Below are positions 8,475 through 59,056 of a stretch of 64,000 nt of DNA, piece after piece. Made by a program: the position numbers and the translations under genes. How positions within the stretch are numbered: position 1 is the stretch's first letter; each line of letters begins with the position of its first letter. The notes under the pieces were generated by a model. The model ran no database searches, was not told the origin of the DNA, and saw nothing but the letters and a program-made list of their open reading frames with translations. Origin of the DNA: Candidatus Bathyarchaeia archaeon (GTDB lineage Archaea > Thermoproteota > Bathyarchaeia > Bathyarchaeales > Bathycorpusculaceae); the NCBI GenBank assembly GCA_038882655.1, contig JAVZNT010000003.1, forward strand, positions 1 to 64,000, written 5' to 3'.

Positions 8475-8475
8475 A

Positions 8476-9465: not shown

Positions 9466-9484
9466 TTAGAGTGGAGGAATCTGC

Positions 9485-10633
9485 ATGGAGTTTAAACTAA
9501 CAGATGAACAAATGGAAATCAAGCGGGCTGCCCGCGAATTCGCAGAAAAAGAGCTCACGCCTGAACTAGCCTTAGAATACGACCAGAAAGAAGAGTTTCC
9601 AATGGAGCTTTACAAGAAAGCCGCTAAACTGGGCTTCACGGGCATGCGAATACCCCAAGAATATGATGGGCAAGGTTACGGGGTCCTAGAAGAATGCCTA
9701 GTTGTTGAAGAGTTCTGCCGCGTTGACCCAGGATTGGGAGTAGCTATCTCCCTCGGAAATCTAATGGTTCCCGACGTCTTACTTAAGCACGGCACAAAAG
9801 AGCAAAAAGAAAAACATATTCCGCCACTGGCTAGAGGCGATAAAATTGCCGCTGCAGCCTTCACCGAGCCGGAGCATGGAAGCGACATAACTAAGATGGA
9901 CACGACAGCTGTCAAAGTGGGCGACGAGTGGGTTATTAATGGCTCAAAACAGTTCATAACAAATGCGCCAATAGCCGACACTTTCATAATTCTATGCCAA
10001 ACAGACCCCAACGCGACCCCACCTCACCGTGGGCAAAGCCTCTTCCTAGTGGAGAAGGGCATGCCAGGTTTAGAGACAACAAAGCTTCAAGGCAAGATGG
10101 GTATAAGACCATGTGTTACTGGCTCGTTGGCGTTAAGCGACCTCCATGTACCCGCAAGCAATCTTATAGGCGAACTGAATAGAGGCTTCTATTATGCGCT
10201 TGAGCTTTTTGATGGAACCCGTATAACTGTAGCAGCCCAAGCCGTCGGCATAGCTCAAGGAGCCTTTGAAAAAGCCCTAAACTATGCTAAAACCCGCAAA
10301 CAGTTCGGACAGCCCATAATCAATTTCCAAGGCGTCTCCTTCAAGCTGGCTGAAATGGCTATGAAGATTGAGACCGCTCGCTTGCTAACGTACAAGGCGG
10401 CTTGGATATACGACCATGAAAAGCCTAGTCCAGCGGCAACATCGATGGCTAAGGCTTATGCGAGTCGCGTAGCTATGGAAGTTACAGACGACGCCATTCA
10501 AATATTTGGTGGTTACGGCTATTTAGCGGACTACCACGTGGAGCGCTTCCATAGATGTGCAAAAATAACTGAAATTTACGAAGGCACAAGCGAAATCCAA
10601 AAGCTGACCATCGTCAACTTTCTAACGAAGTAG
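9485..10633 (+). CDS. Acyl-CoA dehydrogenase (copy 1)
   Basis: FTEPEHGSD, INGSKQFITNA, KMGIR, RKQFGQPI, QIFGGYGY, TEIYEGTSEIQ. Confidence 0.95.
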   Translation: MEFKLTDEQMEIKRAAREFAEKELTPELALEYDQKEEFPMELYKKAAKLGFTGMRIPQEYDGQGYGVLEECLVVEEFCRVDPGLGVAISLGNLMVPDVLLKHGTKEQKEKHIPPLARGDKIAAAAFTEPEHGSDITKMDTTAVKVGDEWVINGSKQFITNAPIADTFIILCQTDPNATPPHRGQSLFLVEKGMPGLETTKLQGKMGIRPCVTGSLALSDLHVPASNLIGELNRGFYYALELFDGTRITVAAQAVGIAQGAFEKALNYAKTRKQFGQPIINFQGVSFKLAEMAMKIETARLLTYKAAWIYDHEKPSPAATSMAKAYASRVAMEVTDDAIQIFGGYGYLADYHVERFHRCAKITEIYEGTSEIQKLTIVNFLTK

Positions 10634-10740
10634 CCACCTTCTCCCCCTTTATTTTCTCAAACGGTTTGTAGGCGACTTCTCAAAAGTTTTATTACGAGTC
10701 TTCCCTATTCAATTTCATTCTAGATTGGGAGAGGATTTGT

Positions 10741-11925
10741 TTGGCTGAAAAATTGAAGAAAGCCGCTGTAATTGGTTCTGGAGCAATGGGGCATGGAATA
10801 ACGCAGCTTTTAGCGATGAGCGCCATAGAAGTGGCAATGGTGGACGTCAGCGACGAACTATTGCAAAAGGGTTTGGAGAAAATTAAGTGGAGCCTAGGCA
10901 AGTTTGTTGAAAAGAAAAGGGTTAGGCAGGAAGATGCAGACGCCGCGCTTTCGCGAATAAAAACGACAACAAGCTATGAGGAGGCAGCCAAAGACATAGA
11001 CCTTGCAATCGAGGCAGTTCCAGAAAACATGGAGCTTAAAAAGCAAGTTTTCGCAAAACTTGACAGCGTCGCACCGCCGCACGCAATTTTAGCGTCTAAC
11101 ACTTCGACCTTGAGCATAACTGTAATGGGAGACGCCACAAAACGCCCAGAAAAAGTGGCGGGAATGCACTTCTTTAACCCACCGCAAATGATGGCTCTGG
11201 TAGAGGTCATTAAAGGCGAAAAAACGAGTCAAGAAACGATAGATGCGCTTGTGGAGCTGGCTAAAAAACTTGGAAAAACTCCAGTGGTTGTCAAAAAGGA
11301 TGTGCGGGGCTTCATAGTTAACCGCGTTCTCGGGGCAGTTTTTAACGAGGCTTTCTGGGCTTATCACAGAGGAGAAGCAACAAAGGAAGGTATAGACGCC
11401 TCCGTCAAATATAGTGGCGGCTTCCCGATGGGATGGTTTGAACTGGCAGACTTCGTCGGGCTTGACATAGCCTATGAAGTTGGGAAAATCCTTTACGAAG
11501 CTTATGGCGAACGCTTTAAACCTTGCGCAGAAGTCATAGAGCCTCTTGTCAGGGAGAAAAAGCTTGGACAAAAAACTGGCGTCGGCTTCTACGACTGGAC
11601 TAAGGGAAGACCAAGAATACCCTTCAATTTGATGGAGGAATATGACGTTGAAAGGTCTTGGGCTGTAGCCGTAAACGAGGCTGCATGGCTAATACATGAA
11701 GGCGCAGCAAACCCAGCAGACATAGACACTGGAATGAAGCTTGGCACTTATTGGCCTTCTGGTCCATGCGAGTATGCTGATAGGACTGGTATAGATGTTG
11801 TTGTCAACAAGTTGAAGGAGCTTTATGCCAAATACAACATGGGAATGTATAAGCCATGCCCGCTGCTAGAAGAGTATGTTAGCAAGGGCTGGCTTGGTAA
11901 GAAAACTGGAAGGGGGTTCTACTAG
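10741..11925 (+). CDS. 3-hydroxyacyl-CoA dehydrogenase with duplicated C-terminal domain
   Basis: GSGAMGHGI, IEAVPE, ASNTS, GMHFFNP, GFIVNR, PMG.FELAD.VGLD, and two G.KTG.GFY endings. Confidence 0.95.
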   Translation: MAEKLKKAAVIGSGAMGHGITQLLAMSAIEVAMVDVSDELLQKGLEKIKWSLGKFVEKKRVRQEDADAALSRIKTTTSYEEAAKDIDLAIEAVPENMELKKQVFAKLDSVAPPHAILASNTSTLSITVMGDATKRPEKVAGMHFFNPPQMMALVEVIKGEKTSQETIDALVELAKKLGKTPVVVKKDVRGFIVNRVLGAVFNEAFWAYHRGEATKEGIDASVKYSGGFPMGWFELADFVGLDIAYEVGKILYEAYGERFKPCAEVIEPLVREKKLGQKTGVGFYDWTKGRPRIPFNLMEEYDVERSWAVAVNEAAWLIHEGAANPADIDTGMKLGTYWPSGPCEYADRTGIDVVVNKLKELYAKYNMGMYKPCPLLEEYVSKGWLGKKTGRGFY

Positions 11926-13080
11926 ATGAAGTTTGAATTAACCGAAGAGCAGATTGGAATAAAAAATGCCGTGAGGGAATTCTGCGATAAGGAGTTCAAA
12001 CCAGAATTGGCATTGGAACTTGACCGTAAAGAAGAGTTTCCAGTGGAGCTTTACAAGAAAGCCGCAAAGTTGGGTTTTACAAGCATGTTCTTCCCACAAG
12101 AGTATGGCGGCCAAGGATATGGGCTTCTTGAAACATGCCTTGTAATCGAGGAAATGTGTAGGGCGGACTCCTCGCTTGGTGTAGCTATTTCAAGTGGAAA
12201 CTTTGGTAGCGAGTTAATATTGGCTTATGGTAGTAAGGAGCAGAAGGAGAAGTATCTTCCGCCAATCTGTAGAGGCGACTATATTTCTGCTGCAGCCTTC
12301 ACAGAACCAAATGTCAGCGGAAGCGACATAACTCGCATGGAGACAACAGCCACAAAATATGGGAACGAATGGTGGATTAATGGCACAAAAACTTTCATAA
12401 CAAACGCCACAATAGCCGATTTTATTGTTGTTTTAACCCAAACAGACACAAAAGTTAGACCAACATACCGTGGTGAAACGTTGTTTGTCGTGAATAAGGG
12501 CACACCGGGACTTGAAACAACAAAGCTTCACAACAAGATGGGGATAAGATGTTCCGTAACTGGCGAAGTGCGCTTTGACAACGTTAAGGTCACCGACTGG
12601 CATATTGTAGGCGAACTTAACAGAGGCTTCTACCACTCAATGGAGTTCTTCGACAAAACAAGGGTTGGCGTAGCAGCTCAAGCCGTGGGCATGGCTCAAG
12701 GCGCGTGGGAAGTAGCCTTCAAATACTCAAAGCAGAGGGAAGCCTTCGGACAGCCCATAATACAGCATGAAGCCATAGGCTGTACCTTGGCGGAGTTAGC
12801 CACAAAAATAGAGGCTGCAAGGCTTCTAACTTACAAGGCCGCTTGGCTCATAGATGTTGGAAAAATGGATCCAATGGGGACAGCCATGGCTAAACAGTAC
12901 GCAAGCAGGGTGGCAATGGAAGCCACAGACTTCGCCATCCAAACATTGGGCGGTTATGGCTATTTAGGCGAGTACCGTGTTGAAAGATACCATAGAGACG
13001 CAAAAATAACTGAAATCTACGAGGGAACAAGCGAAATCCAGAAGCTTACAGTGCTGAAGTATCTCCTAAGAAAGTTCTAA
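11926..13080 (+). CDS. Acyl-CoA dehydrogenase (copy 2)
   Basis: FTEP..SGSD, INGTKTFITNA, REAFGQPI, QTLGGYGY, TEIYEGTSEIQ. Confidence 0.95.
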   Translation: MKFELTEEQIGIKNAVREFCDKEFKPELALELDRKEEFPVELYKKAAKLGFTSMFFPQEYGGQGYGLLETCLVIEEMCRADSSLGVAISSGNFGSELILAYGSKEQKEKYLPPICRGDYISAAAFTEPNVSGSDITRMETTATKYGNEWWINGTKTFITNATIADFIVVLTQTDTKVRPTYRGETLFVVNKGTPGLETTKLHNKMGIRCSVTGEVRFDNVKVTDWHIVGELNRGFYHSMEFFDKTRVGVAAQAVGMAQGAWEVAFKYSKQREAFGQPIIQHEAIGCTLAELATKIEAARLLTYKAAWLIDVGKMDPMGTAMAKQYASRVAMEATDFAIQTLGGYGYLGEYRVERYHRDAKITEIYEGTSEIQKLTVLKYLLRKF

Positions 13081-13131
13081 ATCTCCCAAAAGTAATATAG
13101 GCTGTTCCATAAAACATGGTTTGGTGAAATT

Positions 13132-13920
13132 ATGAGCAAAGCGTATGAAACCCTAAAAATTGAGAGGGAAGACAACGTCCTATGGATAACCCTAAACAGA
13201 CCGCATAGATTAAACGCCTTTAACGACGTTTTAATGGAAGAGCTTGCAGACGCCTTGGATACGGCTGAAAAAGATTCATCCGTTAGATGTGTGGTGATAA
13301 CCGGCGAAGGCGACAGATCCTTCAGCGCTGGCGCAGACGTGACAATGTTTCCAAAGGCAACGCCCGTGAAAGCTGAAGAGTTTTCTAGGCTTGGGCAGAA
13401 GGTTTTCAGTAAAATAGAGGAAATGTCAAAACCAGTTATAGCGGCGATTAACGGCTTCGCCCTAGGCGGAGGCTTGGAACTGGCATTGGCATGCGACTTT
13501 AGAATAGCGGCAGAGCATGCAGAACTAGGTAGTCCCGAAATAAATTTGGGGCTAATACCTGGATGGGGTGGAACCCAAAGGCTTGTGAGGATTATTGGCT
13601 TAGCAAAGGCTAAGGAAATGGTTATGCTTGGAACAAGGCTTAAGGCTGAAGAAGCCCTAAAAATCGGTTTAGTCCACAAGATTGTGCATTACGAGAAGCT
13701 TAGAGACGAGGTTCGCGAGCTAGCCAAAAAACTGAGCGAAGGACCGCCTGTAGCTTTGAAGTATGCGAAATTCGCCGTAAACTTTGGAACACAAGTGCCA
13801 TTAGACGCGGGCTTACGCATAGAATCAGCCCTTATGGGTCTAACCTTCTCAACAGAAGACCTGAAAGAAGGCGTTGAAGCCTTCATGTCAAGGCGGAAAG
13901 CAGAGTTCAAAGGAAAATAG
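13132..13920 (+). CDS. Enoyl-CoA hydratase (crotonase)
   Basis: ITLNRP..LNA, FSAGAD, AAING.ALGGGLELALACD, PEINLGLIPGWGGTQRL; both catalytic Glu present. Confidence 0.95.
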   Translation: MSKAYETLKIEREDNVLWITLNRPHRLNAFNDVLMEELADALDTAEKDSSVRCVVITGEGDRSFSAGADVTMFPKATPVKAEEFSRLGQKVFSKIEEMSKPVIAAINGFALGGGLELALACDFRIAAEHAELGSPEINLGLIPGWGGTQRLVRIIGLAKAKEMVMLGTRLKAEEALKIGLVHKIVHYEKLRDEVRELAKKLSEGPPVALKYAKFAVNFGTQVPLDAGLRIESALMGLTFSTEDLKEGVEAFMSRRKAEFKGK

Positions 13921-13986
13921 GCACTTCACCATTTCCCCACATTTTTAATTGTTTCAAAATTTGAGGTCTAATGGAAGAGTGGTAAG

Positions 13987-15159
13987 ATGAGAAAAGTTGC
14001 GATCATCGGCGTTGGGAGCTCCAAGTTTGGAGTTAGAAACGATGTTAATGTGGCGGAACTCGCCTTTGAAGCTTTTAAGCCCTCTGTTGAGGATGCTGGG
14101 ATAACGCCCAAAGACATAGAGTTCGTTGCTGTGGGCTCGACTGGAGCCGGAGCGTGGTATGAAGAGCTTCTCCCAGCCGTGGTTTCAGCTGAATATTGTG
14201 GCTTAACTGGGACTGGTCTTGTGCGTTGCGAAGCCGCATGTGCAAGTGGAAGTGCAGCCTTTTCGACAGCCTATTGGGATGTGGCAAGCGGGCAAGTCGA
14301 GATTGCAGCGGCTTTAGGTGTTGAGAAAATGCGGGAAATTGACACTCCGACAATGATGGAGTGGATTGGAAGAGCTGGATATTACCTATGGGAGTTCCAC
14401 AACTTCGGTTTAACCTTTCCAGCTTATTATGCTTTATATGCAACCGCCCACATGGCGAAGTTCGGCACGACAGAAGAGGATTTAGCTTTAGTTGCTGTTA
14501 AAAACCACAAGTACGCTTCCATGAACCCAATAGCGCATCTACAAAACAGAATAACAGTTGACGACGTGTTATCTTCGATGGTTATTGCCGCACCCCTAAA
14601 ACTCTTCGACTGCTGCCCAGTCTCCGATGGGGCCGCTTCGATAATCTTGGCCTCTGAAGAGAAGGTTAAAGAGCTTAAGGTTGACACGCCAGTTTGGGTT
14701 GCCGGTATAGGATATGCTTCTGGAACAGCTAACATGAGCAAGAGGCTTGACTATGTGGGATTGGAAGCCAGCGTGGCAGCAGCCCAAAAAGCCTACAAAA
14801 TGGCAAATGTAACACCAGACCAGCTTGACGTTGCAGTGGTCCACGACTGCTTCACCATAGCCGAAATAATGGCATACGAAGATTTGGGCTTCTGCAAGAA
14901 GGGCGAAGGCGCCAAACTAATTAGAGAGGGACAAACCGAAATAAGCGGAAAAATCCCGGTGAATGTAGACGGTGGCTTAAAAGCCAAGGGTCACCCGATT
15001 GGCACAACAGGCTGCTCAATGATATATGAGTTGACAAAGCAGTTGAGAGAGGAGGCTGTTGAAAAGAGCAGACAAGCTCCAATGAAAAATTACATAGCCC
15101 TAGCCCACAATGTGGGCGGAACTGGGCACTACTGTTACGTGACGATTTTAAGGAGATGA
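13987..15159 (+). CDS. Archaeal (SCP2-like) thiolase / acetyl-CoA acetyltransferase
   Basis: EAACASG, AVKNH, DGAA, VHDCFTIAE, GGLKAKGHPIG.TG, HNVGG. Confidence 0.93.
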   Translation: MRKVAIIGVGSSKFGVRNDVNVAELAFEAFKPSVEDAGITPKDIEFVAVGSTGAGAWYEELLPAVVSAEYCGLTGTGLVRCEAACASGSAAFSTAYWDVASGQVEIAAALGVEKMREIDTPTMMEWIGRAGYYLWEFHNFGLTFPAYYALYATAHMAKFGTTEEDLALVAVKNHKYASMNPIAHLQNRITVDDVLSSMVIAAPLKLFDCCPVSDGAASIILASEEKVKELKVDTPVWVAGIGYASGTANMSKRLDYVGLEASVAAAQKAYKMANVTPDQLDVAVVHDCFTIAEIMAYEDLGFCKKGEGAKLIREGQTEISGKIPVNVDGGLKAKGHPIGTTGCSMIYELTKQLREEAVEKSRQAPMKNYIALAHNVGGTGHYCYVTILRR

Positions 15160-15163
15160 GAAG

Positions 15164-15595
15164 ATGGCTGCTATGCCCTCCATAAAATCGAGAGAAGTAA
15201 AAATCGTGCAAGACATCCCCATAAGTAAGACGCTTCAGTTTTGGGAAGCCCTCAAACAAGGGAAAATCCTAGCCACAAAATGCAGAAAATGTGGAAAACT
15301 GTATTTCCCACCAGTTGCTGACTGCTCAAACTGCTTAACTTCAGACATGGAGTGGGTTGAACTCAGCAACGAGGCGACAATCGAAACTTTCACGCATGTG
15401 GTTGTTAGACCAGCAACCTTCCAACAGGAAAAGCCCTACACCGTAGCCATCGGCAGACTAAAAGAAGGCGTTAGGGTGCTTGCGTGGCTTACAGGCTTTA
15501 AACTTTCAGAGGTTAAAGTGGGAATGAAAGCCAAACTTGTGGCAAAGTTAACCCCTGAAGGGCGTCCCACTTACGAGTTCACCCGTCCAGAGTAA
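15164..15595 (+). CDS. DUF35 Zn-ribbon/OB-fold thiolase partner
   Basis: CRKCG..YFPP...C..C followed by an OB fold; directly downstream of the thiolase. Confidence 0.92.
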   Translation: MAAMPSIKSREVKIVQDIPISKTLQFWEALKQGKILATKCRKCGKLYFPPVADCSNCLTSDMEWVELSNEATIETFTHVVVRPATFQQEKPYTVAIGRLKEGVRVLAWLTGFKLSEVKVGMKAKLVAKLTPEGRPTYEFTRPE

Positions 15596-15651
15596 AACCA
15601 TGGAAAGTATTATTACTTCAAAAATCGAAAATATCTCTAATAGGGTTTGAT

Positions 15652-17391
15652 ATGCCAGCTAAAAGGAAAAAGAAGGGTGAAGAGGAGAAAATTAAAAAGC
15701 CAGAAATGCCGGAAAAACCATGGTACAAGTTTTGGTCGCCCAGCGTTAGAAAACACATAGACTATCCCGAGGTGCCCCTTTTCGAGTTTTTAAGAGACTC
15801 CGCCAAAAAATATTCAGATAAGACTGCGATAATCTACTTTGACAGAAAAATAACCTATAAGGAACTGGATTTGCTCTCTGACAGGTTTGCAACTGCCTTA
15901 GCGAATTTAGGAGTAAAGAAGGGGGACAAAGTCGCAATTTATCTTCCAAACGTTCCGCAGTTTGTAATTTCCTATTATGGCGCTTTGAAGGCTGGAGCAA
16001 TTGTCACTGCGATAAGTCCGCTTTATAAGGAGCGGGAGGTGGAGCATCAGCTAAACGATTCTGAAGCTGAAACAATAGTTGTTCTTGACTTGCTTTATCC
16101 AATTGTGGCGAAGGTTTGGGGGAAAACAAAGCTTCGAAATGTTATAGTGGCAGGCCTAAAGGATTACATGCCAACTTTTAAGGCTGTTCTCGGTTCCTTA
16201 TTGAAAAAGATTCCATCTCATAAAGTTGAGCGGAAGGCCAACGTTTACTTTTTCATGGAATTGATGGCAAAGTATGAGGCTAAACCGCTGAAAGTTGAAA
16301 TAAATCCGAGGGAAGATTTGGCTGCTCTCCAATACACTGGCGGGACTACTGGAATTTCTAAAGGAGCTATGCTCACTCACATGAACCTTGTTTCAAACGC
16401 TGTTATGTGCAAAGAATGGCTGCAAGCCAACGAGGCTGAAGAAGTTGTTTTAACAGTGCTTCCACTGTTCCACATCTACGGTATGACGACAAGCATGAAC
16501 GCTCCAATATTTTTCGCTGGAACAATGGTTATGTTGCCCCGCTTCGACCCAGTAGCCGTCTTGGAAGCCATCCACAAACACAGAGTGACGGTGTTTTGCG
16601 GTGCACCGACAATGTATGCAATGCTCATAGCCCACCCAGACCTCAAAAGATACGACCTAAAATCAATAAAATTCTGTGTTTCAGGAGCAGCTCCGCTCCC
16701 ACCAGAGGTCCAGAAGAAGTTCATGGAGGTTACAGGAGGCGTTTTGGTTGAAGGTTATGGGCTTACAGAATCATCGCCAGTAACACATGCTAACCCGCTT
16801 GACAAAACTATGAAGACCGTGAAGATAGGCTCAATTGGGATACCTTGGCCTGACACAGACGCGAAAATAGTTGATTTGGAGACAGGCGAAAAAGAGCTTC
16901 CACCCGGAGAAATTGGTGAACTTATAGTTAAGGGGCCACAAGTGATGAAGGGCTACTGGAAAATGCCAGAAGAAACAGCCGAAGTCTTGAGAAATGGCTG
17001 GCTTTACACCGGCGACATTGGAAAAATGGACGAGGACGGCTACTTCTACATAACAGACAGAAAGAAAGATCTAATCAAATACAAGGGCTACAGCGTCTAC
17101 CCAAGGGAGCTTGAAGATGTCTTATATGAGCATCCAGCTGTGAAACTCTGCGGAGTTATTGGCAAACCAGACCCTGTTGCTGGTGAAATCCCAAAAGCTT
17201 TCGTTGTGCTGAAAGAGGGAATGACTGCCACCGAAGAGGAGCTGATGAAATTTGTAAATGAGAAGGTTGCACCTTACAAGGCGATTAGGGAGCTGGAGAT
17301 TCGCAAGGAGCTACCACTAAGCGCTGTTGGCAAGGTTCTCCGCAGAGTTCTGCGGGAAGAAGAGCTTAAAAAACTGGCTGCTAAAACCTAG
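15652..17391 (+). CDS. fadD: Long-chain acyl-CoA synthetase (AMP-forming)
   Basis: YTGGTTG.SKG, LPLFHIYG, EGYGLTE, TGDIG, DRKKDLIK, GKVLRR. Confidence 0.92.
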   Translation: MPAKRKKKGEEEKIKKPEMPEKPWYKFWSPSVRKHIDYPEVPLFEFLRDSAKKYSDKTAIIYFDRKITYKELDLLSDRFATALANLGVKKGDKVAIYLPNVPQFVISYYGALKAGAIVTAISPLYKEREVEHQLNDSEAETIVVLDLLYPIVAKVWGKTKLRNVIVAGLKDYMPTFKAVLGSLLKKIPSHKVERKANVYFFMELMAKYEAKPLKVEINPREDLAALQYTGGTTGISKGAMLTHMNLVSNAVMCKEWLQANEAEEVVLTVLPLFHIYGMTTSMNAPIFFAGTMVMLPRFDPVAVLEAIHKHRVTVFCGAPTMYAMLIAHPDLKRYDLKSIKFCVSGAAPLPPEVQKKFMEVTGGVLVEGYGLTESSPVTHANPLDKTMKTVKIGSIGIPWPDTDAKIVDLETGEKELPPGEIGELIVKGPQVMKGYWKMPEETAEVLRNGWLYTGDIGKMDEDGYFYITDRKKDLIKYKGYSVYPRELEDVLYEHPAVKLCGVIGKPDPVAGEIPKAFVVLKEGMTATEEELMKFVNEKVAPYKAIRELEIRKELPLSAVGKVLRRVLREEELKKLAAKT

Positions 17392-40759: not shown

Positions 40760-42163
40760 ATGTTCTATATAGAATGCACAGTGTGCGGTGCAAAGTTTGA
40801 AGCCTATCCACCACAATACAGCTGCAAGAAATGTAGCGGCCTCCTAGAATACAGATGTGATAATGAAACGCTTAAAACCGGAACATTTGTCGGGCCTTTC
40901 ACTTTTTGGCGTTACAGGAAGCTTCTGCCAAAGGTCAGAAATGTTGTCTCCATGGGGGAAGGAGGAACCCCACTTATCAAGGCGAGAAGACTTGCCAAAG
41001 GTATTGGGTTAAACAATTTATACTTTAAGGATGAGACGCGAAACCCAACGAATTCTTTTAGGGATAGATGCGCTGCCCTAATTGTTTCCAACGCTGTTGA
41101 TTTGAAGTATAAGTCGGTTGCTTGCGCTACAAATGGAAACCTTGGGGCCTCCTTAGCTGCATACTGTGCAAAGTCTGGATTAACATGCCATGTTGTGGTG
41201 CCGAGAAACGTGGATATGGGAAAACTTGCCCAAATGCTGATCTATGACGCCGTAATTGAAGAGTATGGGGAAATAGTGGATGATTCACTGAAAAGGGCAG
41301 ATGAGCTAGCCAAAGAAATGGGCTGGTATCAAGGGTCTGCAGAGTTTAATCCGCTATCAATAGAAGCCCTAAAAACCATTGCCTACGAAGTTTACGAGCA
41401 AATTGGCGTCCCAGACTGGTTGATTGCTTCTATGGGAAGTGGTGGGACGTTATATGCTATTTGGAAAGGGTTTAAGGAGCTTGAAATAAGAGGCGAAGTA
41501 AAATCCATCCCAAAGATGGTTGGCGTTCAAGCTGAAGGCTGTTCACCAATTGTAAACGCGTATATGCAAAATATTCATGAGCTAACTCTCAAAACTAAAC
41601 CTTCAACTCACGCTCTTGCCATCCTCGTTAAAAGGCCGTGGTATGGTAAATTAGCCATCAAAGCAATCAAAGAATCTATAGGAATGGCTATATCAGTTTC
41701 AGACGAAGAAATTTTCTCTGCGGAACAGGAAATTGCAAAACTTGAGGGTGTCTTCGCTGAACCAGCAAGCGCAGCAACATACGGGGCACTTAAGAAACTT
41801 GTAAACCAACATGTAATTGGCAAAAAGGACAAGATTGTATGCTTGATAACTGGAAGCGGACTTAAAGCAACAGACATCCTCCAAATTTTAACTAAGAGAA
41901 AGAAAACGGCTATTGTTGGATTAGAGCTTAGTACAAAAGAGAAAATATTGAGGATCCTATGTGAAAATGATGCTTACGGCTATGAATTATGGAAAAAACT
42001 CGGAAAAGTGATGACGAGGGCAGCAATTTACCAACATTTAAGCGAATTATCAAAAAACGGGTTGGTCTCAAGTTATGAGAAAGATGGGCGAAAATATTTC
42101 AAAATAACAAAACGTGGAATTAAAGCTATTCATGCATTCGAGGATCTAAAACTTTTGTTATAG
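40760..42163 (+). CDS. Threonine-synthase-fold protein lacking the PLP lysine, fused to a C-terminal PadR-like winged helix
   Basis: Zn-ribbon N-terminus, MGEGGTPL, NPTNSFRDR (canonical NPTGSFKDR), KTIAYE, GVQAEGC.P, EPASA, TGSGLK; then ILRIL...YGYELWK.L....RAAIYQHL.EL...GLV......RKYF.IT..G. Confidence 0.88.
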   Translation: MFYIECTVCGAKFEAYPPQYSCKKCSGLLEYRCDNETLKTGTFVGPFTFWRYRKLLPKVRNVVSMGEGGTPLIKARRLAKGIGLNNLYFKDETRNPTNSFRDRCAALIVSNAVDLKYKSVACATNGNLGASLAAYCAKSGLTCHVVVPRNVDMGKLAQMLIYDAVIEEYGEIVDDSLKRADELAKEMGWYQGSAEFNPLSIEALKTIAYEVYEQIGVPDWLIASMGSGGTLYAIWKGFKELEIRGEVKSIPKMVGVQAEGCSPIVNAYMQNIHELTLKTKPSTHALAILVKRPWYGKLAIKAIKESIGMAISVSDEEIFSAEQEIAKLEGVFAEPASAATYGALKKLVNQHVIGKKDKIVCLITGSGLKATDILQILTKRKKTAIVGLELSTKEKILRILCENDAYGYELWKKLGKVMTRAAIYQHLSELSKNGLVSSYEKDGRKYFKITKRGIKAIHAFEDLKLLL

Positions 42164-51690: not shown

Positions 51691-51763
51691 GCCGGGGTGG
51701 CCGAACGGTTCAGGCGGCTGCCTGCAGAGCAGCTATATGTGGGTTCAACTCCCACCCCCGGCT
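51691..51763 (+). tRNA. tRNA-Cys (anticodon GCA), CCA not encoded
   Basis: Acceptor GCCGGGG/CCCCGGC with U discriminator, anticodon arm GCTGC-CT-GCA-GA-GCAGC, T-arm GTGGG-TTCAACT-CCCAC. Confidence 0.95.
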
Positions 51764-52092
51764 CTGCACTGAAGCAACTCACTTAAGTTTCCTGAAGAAC
51801 TTTGCTCCATTATGGTCACAAACATATTCAAAACCAGCCTCTACGAGCTCCGTTATCTTCTCATTCGAAGTTGCGACTTTACAAATGTAATCATCTTTGT
51901 GTTTCCAAAGTTTAAAATTGTGTATATTAGTGTGTTCTTAATGTTTTTGCGGTACTCTAAAGTGGTGTTCCGATGTTTAAAAGCAGCATTGATGTCGTTA
52001 AAGGGAGGCGCATTAGGAAGTCTTCTTTAAAGTCTAATCGGTTAGGGAAAGCTTTTCTAAAAGCATGCGCACTGTTTATATGGTCTGTCAGC

Positions 52093-55000
52093 ATGCCTGA
52101 GGGCTTGAAGGTTGAGCGTTTTCTTCGTCAAGCGGAAAAAATGGAAGGAAAGTATGAGTGGCTGGAAGCTGCTGAGTCCTACAAGAAAGCGTTGAGTCTG
52201 TTGCCGCCACGCGAATTTCTTAAGGTAGGCGACGTGTACGAGCATATAAGCTATGCTTTTTATCGAGCAGCAATGCAATCTGGGAGTTTAAACGAATTTA
52301 GGAGCAGGATGAGCCAAGCTGTTGTTAATTGCGAGCGGGCAAGAGCTTCATATGCTAAGCTGAGCACTGCCAAAAGATTACCTCTGATGCTTCGTTGCGA
52401 TGCCATGGTCGCATTGGCACATTATTGGCTTGGGTCTTCAGTGTCGGAAAGAAAAAAGCATGCGGATGAATGTTGGCAATTGACAATAAAAGCTCTCGAA
52501 TTATTCAAGGAGTCTTCAAACGCTAGAGAATATGGCTTAACTTACAACAGGTTCACAACAAGCGTTCTTTTTGGGTTCTTTGCAGAATGGGATTATGAGA
52601 CCCGAAGAAAAAAAGCTACAGAAGCTATAGAAAGCGGAGAGCAGGCAGTTAAGTTTCTTTCCACACGTGGCAATTCTCGCGAGTTAACAACAGCCCTTGT
52701 TAAGGTTGCAAGTTTTCGGGAAATGTTTGGTTTCTATTTCCTTGATTTAGAGGCGAGGAAAGAAGAGTATCAGAGAGCTTTAGACTGTTGGCTTAGAGCT
52801 AACGAGCTTTCTGAAGAAACAGCTTACCATGAATTATTGAATTCTTTTGCCATGGTGATGCTTGAAAACCCTGAATGGGAGTGGGGAACAGAAAAAACGC
52901 TTGCGAATATTAAGAAAGCGTTGAACTACAGTAAAAAAGCGAGAGATAATCTAACAATCGGGCTTGCACTCGATTGGTTGGGTTTTCATGCTCTTTTCAA
53001 TGCAGAAACATGTGAAGATCCAAAACGTAGGGTTGAACTTACTAAGAAGGCCTTGCAATATGCCGAAGATGCTAAACGTAACTATTCGCGGGTTTGCTTC
53101 ATCAGTCCACTTTGGGGTCCTTTGTGGGTGGAATCTCCTCTTGCTGGCTTCTATTTCGACCTTGCTGCTTGTGCAACGAATCTTAACGAAAGACGCGATT
53201 TATTAGAAAAAGCCAGAGATGCATCAATGGAGTTGCTGAATTGTGCTTATGCGTCTACGTATCCAGAAGTCATAATGTATGCACATCATGTGTTCAGCGA
53301 TGTTTTATTCTCATTTGCTCATATGGAAACCAATCCTGACAAGAGGCAGCAGCTCCTAGAAGAAGCTATGACACATTCAGATGAGACTGTCAGGATAATC
53401 GAGCAGTTTATCCCCTATTACTATTGGAAACGTGGTAAGATGCAGAATTCCTTGGCAGACATCAAGTCTGAACTGTCTGATTTGTATAAAGATTTTGAAG
53501 TTAAAAAGAGTTTACTTGAGGAAGCTGTGATGGGGAAAGAAAGAACGGTGAAACTTGTTGCAAAGTATGTGAACTTCTGGGAAGGCATAGGGCCTATTCC
53601 ACCATTGGTCGCCAATTTGGCAGAATGGCAATTCCAATACGGAGTCTTGCTAAGTCGCCTCGGCGAGTTCACAAAAAACATTGAATATCTGAAAAAAGCT
53701 GCCAAAACCTTTGAAGAAGCTGCAGCGTCCTTCATGAAGCTTAACCTATTCAGTTACATAGCTCAGTGCTACTGGAAAAAAGGGCAAACCTCCGATGCGT
53801 TAGAAGATTACTTGACGGCTGCAGCAGATTTTGATACAGCTTCAAAGTATTTCAGAAGAGCCTCAAAGACAATTCCTCAACTGTCACAATTCTATCAAGA
53901 CTACGCTCGTTACATGCATGCATGGGCTGAGATTGAAAAAGCCAGACACAACCACAAAACACAGGATTATGAGTCAGCCCGGGAGCATTTCAAGAAAGCT
54001 TCCAAAATTCATAGGCTGTCGAAGCAATGGAGTTACCTTGCTCTAAACTATGAAGCTTGGGCAGAACTGGAAAGCGCTGAGGCTTTGAGCACAAGAGAGC
54101 AAAGTGAAAAAGCCCTCAAAACTTTCACAAATGCCATTGCAATGTTTAATGAGACGAAAAATTCTCTTCAAGCCCAGCTAAGCAGGATTAAAGATAGAGA
54201 TGAAATCCAAATGGTCGCAAGCATTATTAAAGCCGCATCGTTCAGAACAAAATACTGCAGAGGAAGAATGGCCATAGAAGAAGCAAAGATTCTCGACAGA
54301 AAAGGCGACCATTATTCTAGCTCGGAAAAATACAGTTCAGCCGCAGAAAATTTTGAAAAAATAATTCAAAATATGGAATCAGAACACTATCGGAACGAAC
54401 TTGAATTCATTTTAATTCTTTGCCGAGCTTGGCAAAAAATGACGAAAGCTGAAGCGGAAGTTTCCCCTTCGTTGTATATGGAGGCGTCAGAGTTGTTTGA
54501 ACAAGCGAAAGAGTTTAGCGTAGACGAAAGGTCCAAAATGCTGGCGTTGGGGCATAGTCACTTCTGCAAGGCGCTTGCATCAGGAACAAAATTCGTGGAC
54601 ACAAGAGACAAACGCCTCTACGCTGTCACTTTACAACACCTAGAAATCGCCTCCAACTACTATCTTAAGGCAGGTTTCAAAAACGCTGTAGAGTACGGAA
54701 AAGGCATTGAACTGCTTTTCGAGGCTTATATATACATTAACACCGCTAAGAAAGAGAGAGAACCTGAGAAAAAAGTCAAACTTTTCATGATGGCTAAGAA
54801 AATTCTGGAATCTTCTGCTGAATCATTTCTGAAGGCGAGGCACTTTGAAAAAAGAGAGCAAGTGCTCAAGTTGATCGAAAAAGTGGCGGAAGAACGGACA
54901 TTAGCTCTTTCTCTCACCGAGACATTGCATGCTCCAGCTATTATTACGGCTGCATCTACTTTTCCCACTCCAAGTCCAACCAACGAAAAAGCTGTAGGCT

Positions 55001-55716
55001 TAGAACAATTTGAACACGCCAACATACAAGCCTATTTGGTTGCACCCAGAGAAGTAGAGGTTGGAGAGACGTTTGAAGTTAGACTGGATATGACAAATGT
55101 CGGCAAAGAGCCCGGGTTGCTTGTTAGAATTGAGGACCTTGTTTCGTCTGTTCTGAAGATTTCTGGAACTATACCAAAATACAATTTTGATGAAAGCTCG
55201 ATAGATGTGAAGGGCAAGCAACTTGAACCTCAGAGAATCGAATCCATCCTTCTTCAAGTCACAGCATTAGGAAGCGGCATCACGCATCTGAGTCCAAAAA
55301 TAGTCTACATTGATAGCCGCGGCAACTTTAAGACGTGTCAAGCCAAACCGACCACATTAACAATTTATCCGATTGGCAAATTTCAGTTTAGAACAGTCAA
55401 CGCACAAAAAGTATTTGACTATTTAGCTAAAGCCTTCTCTGACGATTATATGAGAAAGCGGATGCCATTGGAAAAGTCAGGTTGGAGAACGCTCATGCAA
55501 ATTGTGAAAAATGCGCATGTATCAAAGTCAAGTATATACGGCACAGGAGTTCATCGTGGAGTAGGCATGACTGAACTGGAAAGACGAGGCGTCGTTGAAG
55601 TCAGAATCTTCCCAGAAGAAAGAGGAAGAGGCGGAAAAATCACTAAAGCACGCATAGCTTATGAGAGAGATGTGGTAAAGAGGTACATTGACCAGCAGGT
55701 TATGAAAATAAAGTAA
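52093..55716 (+). CDS. Giant TPR/helical-repeat protein (~1200 aa) with an Ig-like domain and a C-terminal winged-helix-like domain
   Basis: About 950 aa of Ala/Tyr-rich helical repeats; then beta-rich VEVGETFEVRLDMTNVG...P.IVY.D..G; then SGWRTLMQIVKNAHVSKSSIYG...ELERRGVVEVRIFP.ERGRGG. ATG at 52093 preferred over 51973. Confidence 0.8.
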   Translation: MPEGLKVERFLRQAEKMEGKYEWLEAAESYKKALSLLPPREFLKVGDVYEHISYAFYRAAMQSGSLNEFRSRMSQAVVNCERARASYAKLSTAKRLPLMLRCDAMVALAHYWLGSSVSERKKHADECWQLTIKALELFKESSNAREYGLTYNRFTTSVLFGFFAEWDYETRRKKATEAIESGEQAVKFLSTRGNSRELTTALVKVASFREMFGFYFLDLEARKEEYQRALDCWLRANELSEETAYHELLNSFAMVMLENPEWEWGTEKTLANIKKALNYSKKARDNLTIGLALDWLGFHALFNAETCEDPKRRVELTKKALQYAEDAKRNYSRVCFISPLWGPLWVESPLAGFYFDLAACATNLNERRDLLEKARDASMELLNCAYASTYPEVIMYAHHVFSDVLFSFAHMETNPDKRQQLLEEAMTHSDETVRIIEQFIPYYYWKRGKMQNSLADIKSELSDLYKDFEVKKSLLEEAVMGKERTVKLVAKYVNFWEGIGPIPPLVANLAEWQFQYGVLLSRLGEFTKNIEYLKKAAKTFEEAAASFMKLNLFSYIAQCYWKKGQTSDALEDYLTAAADFDTASKYFRRASKTIPQLSQFYQDYARYMHAWAEIEKARHNHKTQDYESAREHFKKASKIHRLSKQWSYLALNYEAWAELESAEALSTREQSEKALKTFTNAIAMFNETKNSLQAQLSRIKDRDEIQMVASIIKAASFRTKYCRGRMAIEEAKILDRKGDHYSSSEKYSSAAENFEKIIQNMESEHYRNELEFILILCRAWQKMTKAEAEVSPSLYMEASELFEQAKEFSVDERSKMLALGHSHFCKALASGTKFVDTRDKRLYAVTLQHLEIASNYYLKAGFKNAVEYGKGIELLFEAYIYINTAKKEREPEKKVKLFMMAKKILESSAESFLKARHFEKREQVLKLIEKVAEERTLALSLTETLHAPAIITAASTFPTPSPTNEKAVGLEQFEHANIQAYLVAPREVEVGETFEVRLDMTNVGKEPGLLVRIEDLVSSVLKISGTIPKYNFDESSIDVKGKQLEPQRIESILLQVTALGSGITHLSPKIVYIDSRGNFKTCQAKPTTLTIYPIGKFQFRTVNAQKVFDYLAKAFSDDYMRKRMPLEKSGWRTLMQIVKNAHVSKSSIYGTGVHRGVGMTELERRGVVEVRIFPEERGRGGKITKARIAYERDVVKRYIDQQVMKIK

Positions 55717-55938: not shown

Positions 55939-56451
55939 ATGAAAGGAAAAATATTACTAGTCATACCCGTTGCACTCTTAGCATTGTCAATTATTCCAGC
56001 GAAGGCGGCTCCTACTTGGTACAATAAAGCTGAAATGGAAATAACAGGCTTTACGTTTATGGGACCTGATCCAGGGGGAAGAGGTCTCCTATTTGATGTA
56101 ACTTTTGTTGGAGTTGCTGCTGGACCTAACATCAAAGAGGCAACTGTGGAGGGAGTAGATCATCTTCTCATGGACTGGGAAGGAATTGGCCATTTAGATG
56201 TGTACTTGACGGATACCGACAAACAAGGTGAAAAAATTTCAGCGCATATTACTGGACTCGCTGTGACCAAGACGCCTGGCCGCATTGTTTTTGAAAATGC
56301 ACAGGCAACTGTCATCAACACGGCTGGTTATCCTACTACTGGCAAGTATACTGACCTGATTGGCACCACTTTCAATGTTGAAGGCTTTATTACAGAACTC
56401 TCCATCAACCCTCCAAGTGGGTATATACACGCTAAGTGGTGCTGGACCTAA
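55939..56451 (+). CDS. Secreted beta-rich protein of unknown function
   Basis: Signal peptide MKGKILLVIPVALLALSIIPAKA/A; GGAGGTG Shine-Dalgarno; alternating beta-strand pattern. Confidence 0.8.
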   Translation: MKGKILLVIPVALLALSIIPAKAAPTWYNKAEMEITGFTFMGPDPGGRGLLFDVTFVGVAAGPNIKEATVEGVDHLLMDWEGIGHLDVYLTDTDKQGEKISAHITGLAVTKTPGRIVFENAQATVINTAGYPTTGKYTDLIGTTFNVEGFITELSINPPSGYIHAKWCWT

Positions 56452-56662: not shown

Positions 56663-56689
56663 GGTTCAACTCCCCCCAACTCTACACTG
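56663..56689 (+). repeat. Degenerate copy of the tRNA-Cys 3' end plus flank (att-like remnant)
   Basis: 12/12 identity to 51742-51753, a shortened C-run, then 9/10 identity to 51762-51771. Confidence 0.65.
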
Positions 56690-56816
56690 CTACCCAAATA
56701 CGAAAGAAGCTTACCAGTGGTTTCGGCAAAATGTCCATCTTTAACATTTAGGGATAGAATTTTCTTACATAAACGTTTTATGATTAAACATTGAATGTGA
56801 AGCGGTGACATGAGCT

Positions 56817-58190
56817 TTGGAATATAAATGCTATTGTGGCGCGACCCTGAAATGTTCGCATGATGGAAACTGGTTCTGTCCAAATGGACACCCAGTATAC
56901 ACTTGTAAAAAATGCGAAGCGCTTGGAAAGAATACTCCACTTCAATGGGTTTCGCAGTATCAACGATGGTATTGTTATGAATGCAGGGAATATGCTTCAA
57001 AATCAGTTGCGGAAGAAAAAATAGAAGAGGAAGAGGAGGTAGGCGGGGAAGAAGAGGAGTTTCTCGACGAAGAAGAATTTCTTGAAGAGGAAGAAGAAGT
57101 CGAAGTAAGCGGCTACATACTCGGCATACCTAGAGGCAGTAGAGTTGACGAATTCTGTTTCATGTGCAAACATCTGAAATTCACACAAAATAATACGCAC
57201 ATCAAATGTGGTATGAACATCCCCAGATTCTTGGAACCAGCGATTTCAGAGGTCACCATAAGACCAACAGGCGCAGGCAAGGGGATAAGCGGTATATGCG
57301 CTCAAGCATCTTTCATCTCCGACGAGGACGCCCTATTAACTCTTCAAGAATGGCGAGAATTCATTGAGAAAATAGTTGAAAAGCAGATAGAAAATCACGA
57401 AGATGAAGCTGAACCCATCGAAATGTACCGAATTGAATTCGTCGGCGCAACCACCGCAGATGGAGGTGCAAACGCCACCAAGGTACCTGTAAGTCGCGAC
57501 AGCATTGTTGGTGGCCGAATCACTGTGACAATTGACAGCGAAAATGAGAAAGTTTGGATTCATGCTGGAACTAAAAAGTCCGGTTTTCTGAGCGGCTTTG
57601 CAAAGGTTATAGGAGGCATTGCCGGCTCCATGGAAGACTGTTTCAGTGCGCGATTTCTGAGGGATCTACTAAAACGGGATATAGAATCGTTTAGCGTTGA
57701 GAAAATATGGGCTGGAGAGGAGCCTCTGGAGTTTTGGCAGGTTTTGGATAGAGGCGCAAGAGAGCTATCTAGTCAGGCATCTGAGCATGTGTTAGAACAA
57801 CCTAAATTTGAAGGTCCTAAGATAGAAATGTACCTGTTAAAGTATCACATGGGAAGGGCATACGGTGAATATTATACTGGAGGCAGAAGTGATAGCGAAA
57901 CAAAATCAATAACTATCGAGCCATTAAAAGCATCCGTTGAAGAACTTCAGTCAAAACGCATGGTAATCGTCATAGATCACCAAGCAAAAATTGTTTGGCA
58001 CTGGATAGGAGACAAAAGTGCACGCCTAATGAAGTTCTTCGTAAAAAGAATACCCTCAGATGGACAGTCACGGAGGCATCATTTAGGCATTATTGGAAGT
58101 CGAATAGGGCAAAGCATAGACGATTATGACTATGTCGTAGTCGAAGAGAAAAAGGAACCAGAACAGTTCAAGAGGCTTTTCCAAGCTTAA
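56817..58190 (+). CDS. Zinc-ribbon / acidic linker / tandem gelsolin-like-domain protein
   Basis: TTG start with GGTGA upstream; Cys-rich N-terminus, poly-Glu tract, two internal repeats (about aa 200-311 and 334-457) with the gelsolin pattern ..D....VW.W.G..S and E..EP..F...(L/F). Confidence 0.7.
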   Translation: MEYKCYCGATLKCSHDGNWFCPNGHPVYTCKKCEALGKNTPLQWVSQYQRWYCYECREYASKSVAEEKIEEEEEVGGEEEEFLDEEEFLEEEEEVEVSGYILGIPRGSRVDEFCFMCKHLKFTQNNTHIKCGMNIPRFLEPAISEVTIRPTGAGKGISGICAQASFISDEDALLTLQEWREFIEKIVEKQIENHEDEAEPIEMYRIEFVGATTADGGANATKVPVSRDSIVGGRITVTIDSENEKVWIHAGTKKSGFLSGFAKVIGGIAGSMEDCFSARFLRDLLKRDIESFSVEKIWAGEEPLEFWQVLDRGARELSSQASEHVLEQPKFEGPKIEMYLLKYHMGRAYGEYYTGGRSDSETKSITIEPLKASVEELQSKRMVIVIDHQAKIVWHWIGDKSARLMKFFVKRIPSDGQSRRHHLGIIGSRIGQSIDDYDYVVVEEKKEPEQFKRLFQA

Positions 58191-58204
58191 TGTCTGGGAA
58201 TTAA

Positions 58205-59056
58205 ATGAATGTTGAGGCCATCACATTCCTTGCAATTAGCACAATCTACTGGGTACTTGCACTGCGTTATTATTATGGCGTTTCTAAAGAACTGAGTCAG
58301 TATGCGCAAAAACCTCTAAAATCACCTAAAACTAGGACACTCATTATCGCTATTTACGGTTTCGGGCTAACATTATCTTTCGCGCTTGTGGGCCTAAACT
58401 CGAAATCAATCCTGCTGTCAGCCCTTCGAGGAGGCGCCCCTATTTCAGCTTTCTTTATAATCCTTCTTTCTTTTTTAAGCCCAATTATCAATTATCTTTC
58501 TGTTTGCATTCAAGCTACGAATAGTGTTAATACTATTTTTCTATCCTCTAGCTTTCTGTTGGCAGTTGCTTCCGGCATAGCCATCCTTATTCCCTTCGGC
58601 TATGTCCTATATAAAACTCGAAAAGAAATAGAGATGCGCTTTCAAATGGCTACAGGTGGAATGCCTAAAAAACTGCGTGGAGATTTTAAAATGTACAGAA
58701 CATCTCATGGAAAGCCGGTTACACGAGGCATATTTGGAGGGCTTATGGGCTTGATTATGTTTCCTTGGTATTTGTACTTTGATTTATTCAAAGCTAAGCA
58801 AGGCCTCGTTGTATATAGAAAAGCGACAACAACCGAATACGACTGGACTTTCGTTGATTCGTCCCATCCTCCGCCCTTTTATGTTAGAGATGAGAGATTA
58901 GAGGTGGATATAGGAGAGGCGCTCGCTAAAACAGACAAAAGAACTATAAATCATGCCGGCGTCCCTATTTGCCCAAAATGCAAAAAGGCGCTCATCTACT
59001 TAGAAGACCATCAAAAATGGTGGTGTACCAAGTGCAAAAGAGCCTATATAGAATAA
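58205..59056 (+). CDS. Multi-pass membrane protein with C-terminal zinc ribbon
   Basis: 4-5 TM helices; ends CPKCKKALIYLEDHQKWWCTKCKRAY. Confidence 0.78.
   Translation: MNVEAITFLAISTIYWVLALRYYYGVSKELSQYAQKPLKSPKTRTLIIAIYGFGLTLSFALVGLNSKSILLSALRGGAPISAFFIILLSFLSPIINYLSVCIQATNSVNTIFLSSSFLLAVASGIAILIPFGYVLYKTRKEIEMRFQMATGGMPKKLRGDFKMYRTSHGKPVTRGIFGGLMGLIMFPWYLYFDLFKAKQGLVVYRKATTTEYDWTFVDSSHPPPFYVRDERLEVDIGEALAKTDKRTINHAGVPICPKCKKALIYLEDHQKWWCTKCKRAYIE

Follow-up and report, generated by a model that had tools for sequence, protein, structure and literature searches.

A putative two-domain gelsolin-fold protein with N-terminal zinc ribbons, paired with a small membrane protein on a genomic island of a Bathyarchaeia archaeon

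We analysed a stretch of 64,000 nucleotides (the window; positions 1 to 64,000 of the forward strand of contig JAVZNT010000003.1, assembly GCA_038882655.1) from a Candidatus Bathyarchaeia archaeon, and in it one gene encoding a protein of 457 amino acids (aa), for which an earlier note made from the sequence alone had proposed a divergent two-domain gelsolin-like protein with N-terminal zinc modules. This proposal is borne out by a structural model, by two fold searches and by a profile match to the Asgard ProGel chain 7c2f_B, and judging from the model both C-terminal repeats very probably have the gelsolin fold. Because the host, an archaeon of hot springs, is apparently actin-less, the gene lies on a mobile island and it is paired with a gene for a small membrane protein, the fold here probably does something other than actin regulation. 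Our preferred reading, to which we give a probability of about 0.5, is that the protein is a horizontally spread, actin-independent gelsolin-fold adaptor acting at the membrane together with its partner.

The C-terminal half of the protein is made of two repeats, here called D1 and D2. When the corresponding halves of the family alignment (aa 186-318 and aa 326-457) were compared, hhalign returned a probability of 96.1% and an E-value of 3.4e-9 over 110 columns, and plain pairwise blastp between the repeats gave 23.9 bits (E 4e-4). Every pair of motifs that the earlier note had matched between the two repeats was also aligned in this profile-profile comparison. The two gelsolin-fold domains arose by duplication.

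The AlphaFold2 model computed from the 28-sequence family alignment has a mean predicted local distance difference test (pLDDT) score of 75.8 and a predicted template modelling (pTM) score of 0.70, with most of both repeats above 80. A Foldseek search of the PDB with this model gave 63 matches at E<=1e-3, and the best 34 of the 63 all belong to the gelsolin superfamily. Among the matches listed are adseverin (3fg6, the best, 3e-10), gelsolin, the Thor 2DGel (4-5e-9), the Heimdall 2DGel, villin, CapG and fragmin. The alignments extend over about 264 columns across both repeats, with global template modelling (TM) scores of 0.16-0.19 and a root-mean-square deviation (rmsd) of 16-18 A; such poor global values are expected because the inter-domain orientation differs. 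The same outcome was reached for single domains in VIA, a second and independent fold search run all-against-48,161 structures with scores per domain. In VIA, D2 (aa 335-456) was matched to the Thorarchaeota ProGel 7c2f_D with Z 10.4, rmsd 2.6 A and 19% identity over 88 of 88 residues, followed by fragmin F3 (Z 9.1), Thor 2DGel3 (Z 8.8), Heimdall 2DGel (Z 7.8) and Sec24b (Z 7.5). D1 (aa 191-312) was matched to the gelsolin-like domain of Sec23a (Z 7.0, rmsd 3.8, 95 residues aligned) and to severin domain 2 (Z 5.6), and both domains together (aa 195-457) to adseverin A1-A3 (Z 10.8, 192 residues aligned). Since the values for D1 alone are modest, we base its assignment largely on the homology between the repeats and on the alignments covering both domains.

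Evidence independent of the model comes from the family profile, for which the top match among 177,635 PDB sequences is 7c2f_B, the 94-residue Thor ProGel chain deposited with Akil et al. 2020 (PMC7444086). The match is marginal (E 6e-4, 21.7 bits) and covers the core of D2 only. Searches of the ESM Atlas by features and with the protein's own model, which serve as leads only, pointed in the gelsolin direction likewise, and a viral structure library gave a single significant match, to a Klosneuvirus gelsolin-repeat protein (E 3.5e-7). On the other side, the profile check that had been suggested against Pfam Gelsolin (PF00626) failed: there is no match at E<=1 in the protein or anywhere in the host genome. 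The structural check suggested alongside it gave the opposite result, as both repeats adopt the gelsolin fold in the model and no unrelated family claims them. Membership of the related ADF/cofilin group was considered and rejected. ADF-H, cofilin, twinfilin and coactosin structures reached Z 4.0-5.6 compared with 7.5-10.4 for gelsolin domains, and D2 has W-I-G, while a WP in place of WxG is given as the ADF/cofilin criterion in PMC7444086.

The reading frame noted earlier is exact and corresponds to a real conserved gene. Its TTG start is backed by full-length homologues that open with MEYKC or MDYKC at the identical N-terminus. A word-indexed search of 5.8 billion proteins returned 27 relatives, none of which has an annotation or a Pfam domain, and the 457-aa protein itself has no Pfam family at E<=1. 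The resulting alignment of 28 sequences has a mean column identity of 52%. By module, the mean is highest in ribbon 2 (0.81), followed by ribbon 1 (0.72), the middle module and D2 (0.67 each) and D1 (0.64), and it falls below 0.5 in both linkers (0.43 in the D1-D2 linker). An exhaustive hidden Markov model (HMM) search, run against 1.84 billion cluster representatives, yielded 99 matches at E<=1e-3, but just 9 of these 99 representatives extend beyond the N-terminal zinc ribbons; the remaining 90 are confined to profile positions 1-90 and often have 3-8 tandem ribbon copies. Because short forms of 244-260 aa hold just the middle module and D1, and some longer members are without ribbons, we infer from the sequences that these two modules are the family core, to which ribbons, linker and D2 would have been added.

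At the N-terminus, the Cys-rich zinc modules, the further Cys cluster and the acidic tract of the earlier description are all present. There are 12 putative zinc ligands, each conserved wherever its region exists: those of ribbon 1 in 15-16 of the 28 rows, the other rows being without the N-terminus, and the Cys residues of the middle module in all 24-25 rows that have the region. The assignment of the ribbons follows from this Cys/His pattern and is to that extent a prediction. When the N-terminal 195 residues were folded alone (pLDDT 68.4), no structural neighbour was found: the best VIA match has Z 3.1, and Foldseek gave nothing at E<=1e-3, its best chains (E 1.4) coming from ribosome structures and being, we presume, small zinc-ribbon ribosomal proteins. 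The acidic tract lies at aa ~64-95 and is disordered in the AlphaFold2 model, with pLDDT <50 for residues 64-93. Across the family the length of the acidic linker ranges from 9 to 46 aa, and in a sister strain (run X3), whose gene diverges by ~3.5% at the nucleotide level, the poly-Glu tract carries an in-frame 21-nt deletion at position 57030. Since it is disordered in the model, variable in length and subject to this in-frame deletion, the tract behaves as a flexible linker and not as a functional motif.

Pfam has no specific model for the W-Y-C-x2-C ribbon, which behaves as a promiscuous module. For example, protein P0031 contains 8 stretches that match the family profile, separated by E/K/P-rich linkers, and a double ribbon is fused to TPR repeats in P0033 and to an unrelated domain in P0035. 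The host genome itself encodes a PRC-barrel protein of 114 aa (contig C13, locus L107, 1361-1705, plus strand; PF05239, E 1.9e-8) that ends in a ribbon of the type shared by the 457-aa protein and its partner. Many relatives have open frames of ~103-123 aa that match in the ribbon only, and this PRC-barrel protein may be a conserved core protein, possibly related to division.

The gene and its downstream neighbour, which starts after a gap of 14 nt, are a conserved two-gene operon, predicted from this layout to be co-transcribed. The C-terminal ribbon of the partner is of the same W-[WY]-C-x2-C type as that of the 457-aa protein. The partner (40-42% identity) adjoins the gene in 3 of the 3 full-length metagenomic loci that extend past it, where the other neighbours all differ; blastp found no partner in any of the 7 short-form loci. 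The partner family has 21 proteins, six of which have a longest contig equal in size to that of a member of the gelsolin-fold family. The ESM Atlas gave no usable match for the partner. Short forms without the partner gene were seen in the metagenome loci L096-L101, and those of L097 and L099 are located ~2.6 kb from a tyrosine integrase and adjoin large Laminin_G_3-type proteins.

That the host is a non-Asgard archaeon, as the earlier note had it, is established by SecY. The window contains an archaeal ribosomal-protein operon with L32e, L19e, S4e and SecY, together with beta-oxidation and hydrogenase-maturation genes; this SecY shares as much as 95% identity with that of Candidatus Bathyarchaeia metagenome-assembled genomes (MAGs), and 79 of the 80 loci kept are labelled Bathyarchaeia, Bathyarchaeota or Bathyarchaeales. 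Contamination from an Asgard bin was ruled out by the ribosomal operon and SecY on the same contig and by the flanks of the island, which are syntenic with sister genomes. A contig carrying a relative of the gene (L092) also comes from Bathyarchaeia of the host family, its aspartate transcarbamoylase being 84-88% identical to that of genomes of the same family.

In this host, no match to Pfam Actin (PF00022) was found in the 84% complete genome, which comprises 1.02 Mb in 27 contigs. Because the incompleteness of the MAG could hide an actin gene, we also searched genomes of the host taxonomic family, and PF00022 at E<=1e-5 was found in 0 of 61 (from 60 genera) and 0 of the 36 high-quality ones. 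MreB has no match in the host genome either, which has one FtsZ. The signatures of the protein were also examined. WxG (DWG) is described as the signature motif of Asgard gelsolins by the Robinson laboratory (PMC9433394, PMC7444086). It is present in D2 (W396-x-G398) in 27 of 27 sequences, next to an invariant D387-H388, while the equivalent of its Trp in D1 is H (15 sequences), Y (12) or R (1), and G251 is found in 18 of 28. The same two sources describe a WH2-like, LKKT-type motif between D1 and D2 of the Asgard 2DGel (PMC9433394, PMC7444086); the pattern L-[KR]-[KRH]-[TVAS] is found in the D1-D2 linker of none of the 28 family sequences. With no PF00022 match, no MreB, no WH2-like motif and the WxG of D1 lost, the earlier suggestion, taken as one of regulation of an actin-type filament, is not supported.

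The location of the gene pair points to a mobile origin. When compared with four sister genomes of the genus, homology (~88-92%) ends at 51765, immediately after a tRNA-Cys gene, and resumes at ~59125 in the 3' end of a MATE transporter gene. Between these borders the sister genomes have unrelated content or none: genome G003 has an empty site (~170 bp), G013 has an element with an integrase and, on its flanks, a 29-bp repeat of the tRNA 3' end, and G004 and G008 have a MacB/FtsX ABC transporter with an orphan protein of 1155-1283 aa. Table 1 lists the features of the locus.

Table 1. Features of the tRNA-Cys hotspot and of the modules of the gelsolin-fold gene (window coordinates)
Feature	Position	Strand	Remarks
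tRNA-Cys, left border of the hotspot	51691..51764	+	homology to sister genomes stops at 51765
Degenerate copy of the tRNA-Cys 3' end (att-like remnant)	56663..56689	+	just upstream of the gene pair
Whole gene, 457 aa	56817..58190	+	TTG start, stop included; open reading frame list and 27 homologues
Zinc ribbon 1, aa 1-28	56817..56900	+	putative ligands C5, C7, C21, H25 (CCCH); pLDDT 83-89
Zinc ribbon 2, aa 29-60	56901..56996	+	putative ligands C30, C33, C53, C56 (CCCC); W-Y-C-x2-C signature; best-conserved module
Disordered acidic (poly-Glu) linker, aa 61-98	56997..57110	+	low pLDDT, variable length
Middle four-Cys module, aa 99-168	57111..57320	+	C114, C117, C131, C161; no recognisable fold
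Long connecting helix into repeat 1, aa 169-196	57321..57404	+	DSSP helix 170-195 in the full-length and N-terminal models
Predicted gelsolin-fold domain D1, aa 197-312	57405..57752	+	WxG position degenerate ([H/Y]-A-G); disordered insert 256-273
D1-D2 linker, aa 313-333	57753..57815	+	poorly conserved, without WH2-like motif
Predicted gelsolin-fold domain D2, aa 334-457	57816..58187	+	ProGel-like; WxG (W396-x-G398) and D387-H388 conserved
Partner gene, 283 aa	58205..59056	+	14 nt downstream of the gelsolin-fold gene; about four transmembrane helices, conserved cytosolic region, C-terminal zinc ribbon

Because the attachment-site-like (att-like) copy of the tRNA 3' end in Table 1 lies directly upstream of the gene pair, the island is composed of two modules, the gelsolin-fold gene and its partner being the distal one. 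The local alignment of this copy scores 17 compared with 10.8 +/- 1.2 for shuffled sequences, of which 2 in 300 reach 17, and a contig from run X3 has an exact 27-nt copy of the tRNA 3' end at that position before it runs into the gene. The proximal module has two plus-strand genes, neither with a significant family: 51973-55716 encodes a 1247-aa protein with weak TPR matches, and 55939-56451 a 170-aa protein with a hydrophobic N-terminal segment that resembles a signal peptide. These genes are not linked to the gelsolin-fold gene in other loci.

The full-length family is very rare. It was found in one of 61 relatives and one of 401 sampled genomes of the class, and a scan of species-representative genomes with the family motif gave 9 pattern matches, none of which is a relative. 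Hot-spring metagenomes from five studies contain the locus. No RNA data set is listed as containing it; two runs labelled as metatranscriptomes, but probably of DNA, cover the block upstream and have almost no depth over 56740-59052, and we place no weight on them. Beyond the family, a single sequence relative of D2 was found, P0094 (hmmsearch E 3.6e-5). Its N-terminal domain is a member of a small family from MAGs of Promethearchaeota (Asgard archaea; P0094, P0123-P0129) that has neither annotation nor Pfam assignment. By hhalign, D2 matches this domain family with a probability of 96.8% (E 2.3e-10, 69 columns) and D1 barely (16%). Compared with the PDB by sequence, P0094 gave nothing relevant, and its family profile weakly matches 7c2f_B (E 0.19). 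Because D2 is nearest to the Promethearchaeota family, the distribution is patchy and the gene is on an island, we infer that the gelsolin-fold module was acquired horizontally, with a ProGel-like domain that would have come from an Asgard-related source. A compositional sign of recent transfer was looked for and rejected, as the gene has a G+C content of 0.43, which falls inside the range seen in the window.

In the preferred reading, the adaptor would work at the membrane with its four-helix transmembrane partner, and its gelsolin-fold domains would serve, by analogy with Sec23/24, as a protein-binding module and not as an actin regulator. The ribbon type that the two proteins share could serve for docking, with the ribbons binding each other or a common hub, and the flexible acidic linker would let the middle module and the two gelsolin-fold domains reach a protein ligand. 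Several points weigh against this reading. The conservation of the WxG of D2 and of D387-H388 may indicate that an actin-type or cation-binding surface has been kept. The genomes used as controls for PF00022 include no carrier of crenactin, which also limits the search for actin or crenactin that the earlier note had proposed and that ended without a PF00022 match; an actin-like protein could be too divergent for PF00022 or could lie in the missing 16% of the MAG. The Z scores of D1 (7.0 and 5.6) are in a range where the tool warns of a common arrangement. For the horizontal spread, the G+C content gives no sign of recent transfer, and the argument is built on nearest matches and patchy distribution, not on a tree.

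One alternative is that the protein is a genuine regulator of actin or actin-like filaments akin to Asgard 2DGel and ProGel, its actin being undetected, unassembled, encoded on a mobile element or supplied by another organism. The closest structure is indeed the actin-binding ProGel (Z 10.4 over 88 of 88 residues), the WxG of D2 is kept in 27 of 27 sequences, the tandem arrangement of two domains resembles 2DGel, a linker and zinc domain are also reported for the Loki and MK-D1 2DGels (PMC9433394), and a crenactin-like actin is reported for a single-cell genome of Bathyarchaeota (MCG) in PMC4571567. We nevertheless regard this alternative as distinctly unlikely in view of the lack of PF00022 in the host genome and in 61 family genomes, the lack of MreB, the missing WH2-like motif (0 of 28), the lost WxG of D1 and the lack of a Pfam Gelsolin match at E<=1; moreover, the conserved neighbour is a membrane protein and not actin or profilin. 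A second alternative, drawn from the island and its neighbourhood, is a two-gene conflict or defence module, in which a cytosolic sensor of an invader or of stress would act through a four-helix transmembrane effector. A variable hotspot beside a tRNA gene, with differing cargo in sister genomes that includes an integrase-bearing element, would suit such a module, as would the extremely sporadic distribution (1 of 401), the two-gene layout of a soluble and a small transmembrane protein, and the short forms near a tyrosine integrase in L099. Yet PADLOC has no match for the gelsolin-fold protein and only a weak one for the partner (PDC-S64, 16.3 bits, E 8.7e-4), which falls on the ribbon. PHROGs match neither of the two proteins nor the two upstream genes, viral contigs scanned with the family contain no relatives, the alternative cargo of G004 and G008 is an ABC transporter and not a defence system, and no enzymatic or pore-forming domain is recognised. 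We consider a conflict or defence role unlikely.

A further alternative has the ribbons recruit the protein to the FtsZ/SepF/PRC-barrel division machinery, where it would modulate a non-actin cytoskeleton. It is raised because the PRC-barrel protein of the host shares the ribbon and PRC-barrel proteins have a role in division: in Haloferax they are reported as division factors that form a complex with SepF, and Bathyarchaea are reported to have CdvA-like proteins fused to Glu-rich tails (both in PMC11188069). Ribbon-only matches of similar size occur in relatives and FtsZ is present in the host genome. This evidence is, however, purely associative, the ribbon being promiscuous and fused to TPR and other domains, and an accessory island gene is unlikely to be a core division factor; we consider this alternative improbable. 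A wider form of this idea, which we see as a long shot, is that in TACK archaea a mobile two-gene module took up a pair of gelsolin/cofilin-fold domains, which would now act on a target other than actin; the most interesting candidate target is the FtsZ/SepF/PRC-barrel machinery. If it were true, a divisome target reached through the shared ribbon would make this the first gelsolin-fold regulator of a non-actin cytoskeleton, and a fold regarded as a eukaryotic signature would spread through archaea without any link to actin.

Proteins with gelsolin domains are regarded as eukaryotic signature proteins. The two-domain gelsolin fold has so far been described only in eukaryotes and Asgard archaea, and PMC7444086 states that mini-gelsolin architectures occur in Asgard archaea alone. 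In the literature that was accessible we found no gelsolin-fold protein reported from Bathyarchaeia or Thermoproteota; supplementary distribution tables may list some. What is new here is a known fold in a new domain architecture, in a new host lineage, in a host with no actin detected and in a new gene partnership. On the preferred reading the fold depends neither on actin nor on an Asgard host and can move horizontally, which bears on the reading of gelsolin domains as evidence of an actin cytoskeleton and on a possible ancestral, pre-actin function of the gelsolin/cofilin fold. The gene pair also offers a small and tractable two-protein system in which a non-actin ligand of the gelsolin fold can be sought.

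Two other regions of the window, both on the plus strand, are recorded here. A complete-looking beta-oxidation cluster at 7680-17391 contains electron-transfer flavoprotein alpha/beta, two acyl-CoA dehydrogenases, a 3-hydroxyacyl-CoA dehydrogenase, an enoyl-CoA hydratase, a thiolase and an AMP-forming ligase. At 40760-42163, a pyridoxal phosphate (PLP)-enzyme (PALP) domain is fused to a PadR-type winged helix.

When compared with known systems, the protein has the same domain fold as Asgard ProGel (7C2F) and 2DGel (7C2G, 7C2H, 7WHF, 7WHG), with which it also shares the WxG of D2 and the tandem two-domain layout. The Loki and MK-D1 2DGels are described as having a linker and a predicted zinc domain (PMC9433394), but their zinc modules are C-terminal whereas those of our protein are N-terminal, and the four-Cys middle module is an addition of the latter. 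It differs further from the Asgard 2DGel in its Bathyarchaeia host without detectable actin, in the absence of a WH2-like motif and of a Pfam Gelsolin match and in the loss of the D1 WxG, and from Asgard gelsolins in general in that its gene shares an operon with that of a membrane protein. The Promethearchaeota family of P0094, although the nearest relative of D2, is single-domain, lacks zinc ribbons and has different C-terminal extensions. Tandem gelsolin repeats are common to our protein and to eukaryotic gelsolin, adseverin, villin, CapG and fragmin; the eukaryotic gelsolins have three or six repeats instead of two, a different inter-domain orientation and only 12-16% identity, and no actin was detected in the present host.

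The comparison with Sec23/Sec24 of the inner coat of coat protein complex II (COPII) is of another kind, since there the gelsolin fold is used without actin and zinc-binding modules are present too; the membrane as the site of action of our protein is a proposal. Homology to Sec23/24 was ruled out by the missing accompanying domains, the lack of a Pfam family and the Z of <=3.1 of the N-terminal model. There is no trunk (von Willebrand factor A-like), beta-barrel or helical domain, and just 195 residues lie outside the repeats, ~40 of them disordered. Our protein has two gelsolin-fold domains compared with one in Sec23/Sec24, and its structural match to them is weaker than that to ProGel. Asgard Sec23-like proteins are themselves reported to have no gelsolin domain at all (PMC11914678). 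As an analogy, however, a non-actin use of the fold of the Sec23/24 type appears to fit the context of the gene better than actin regulation.

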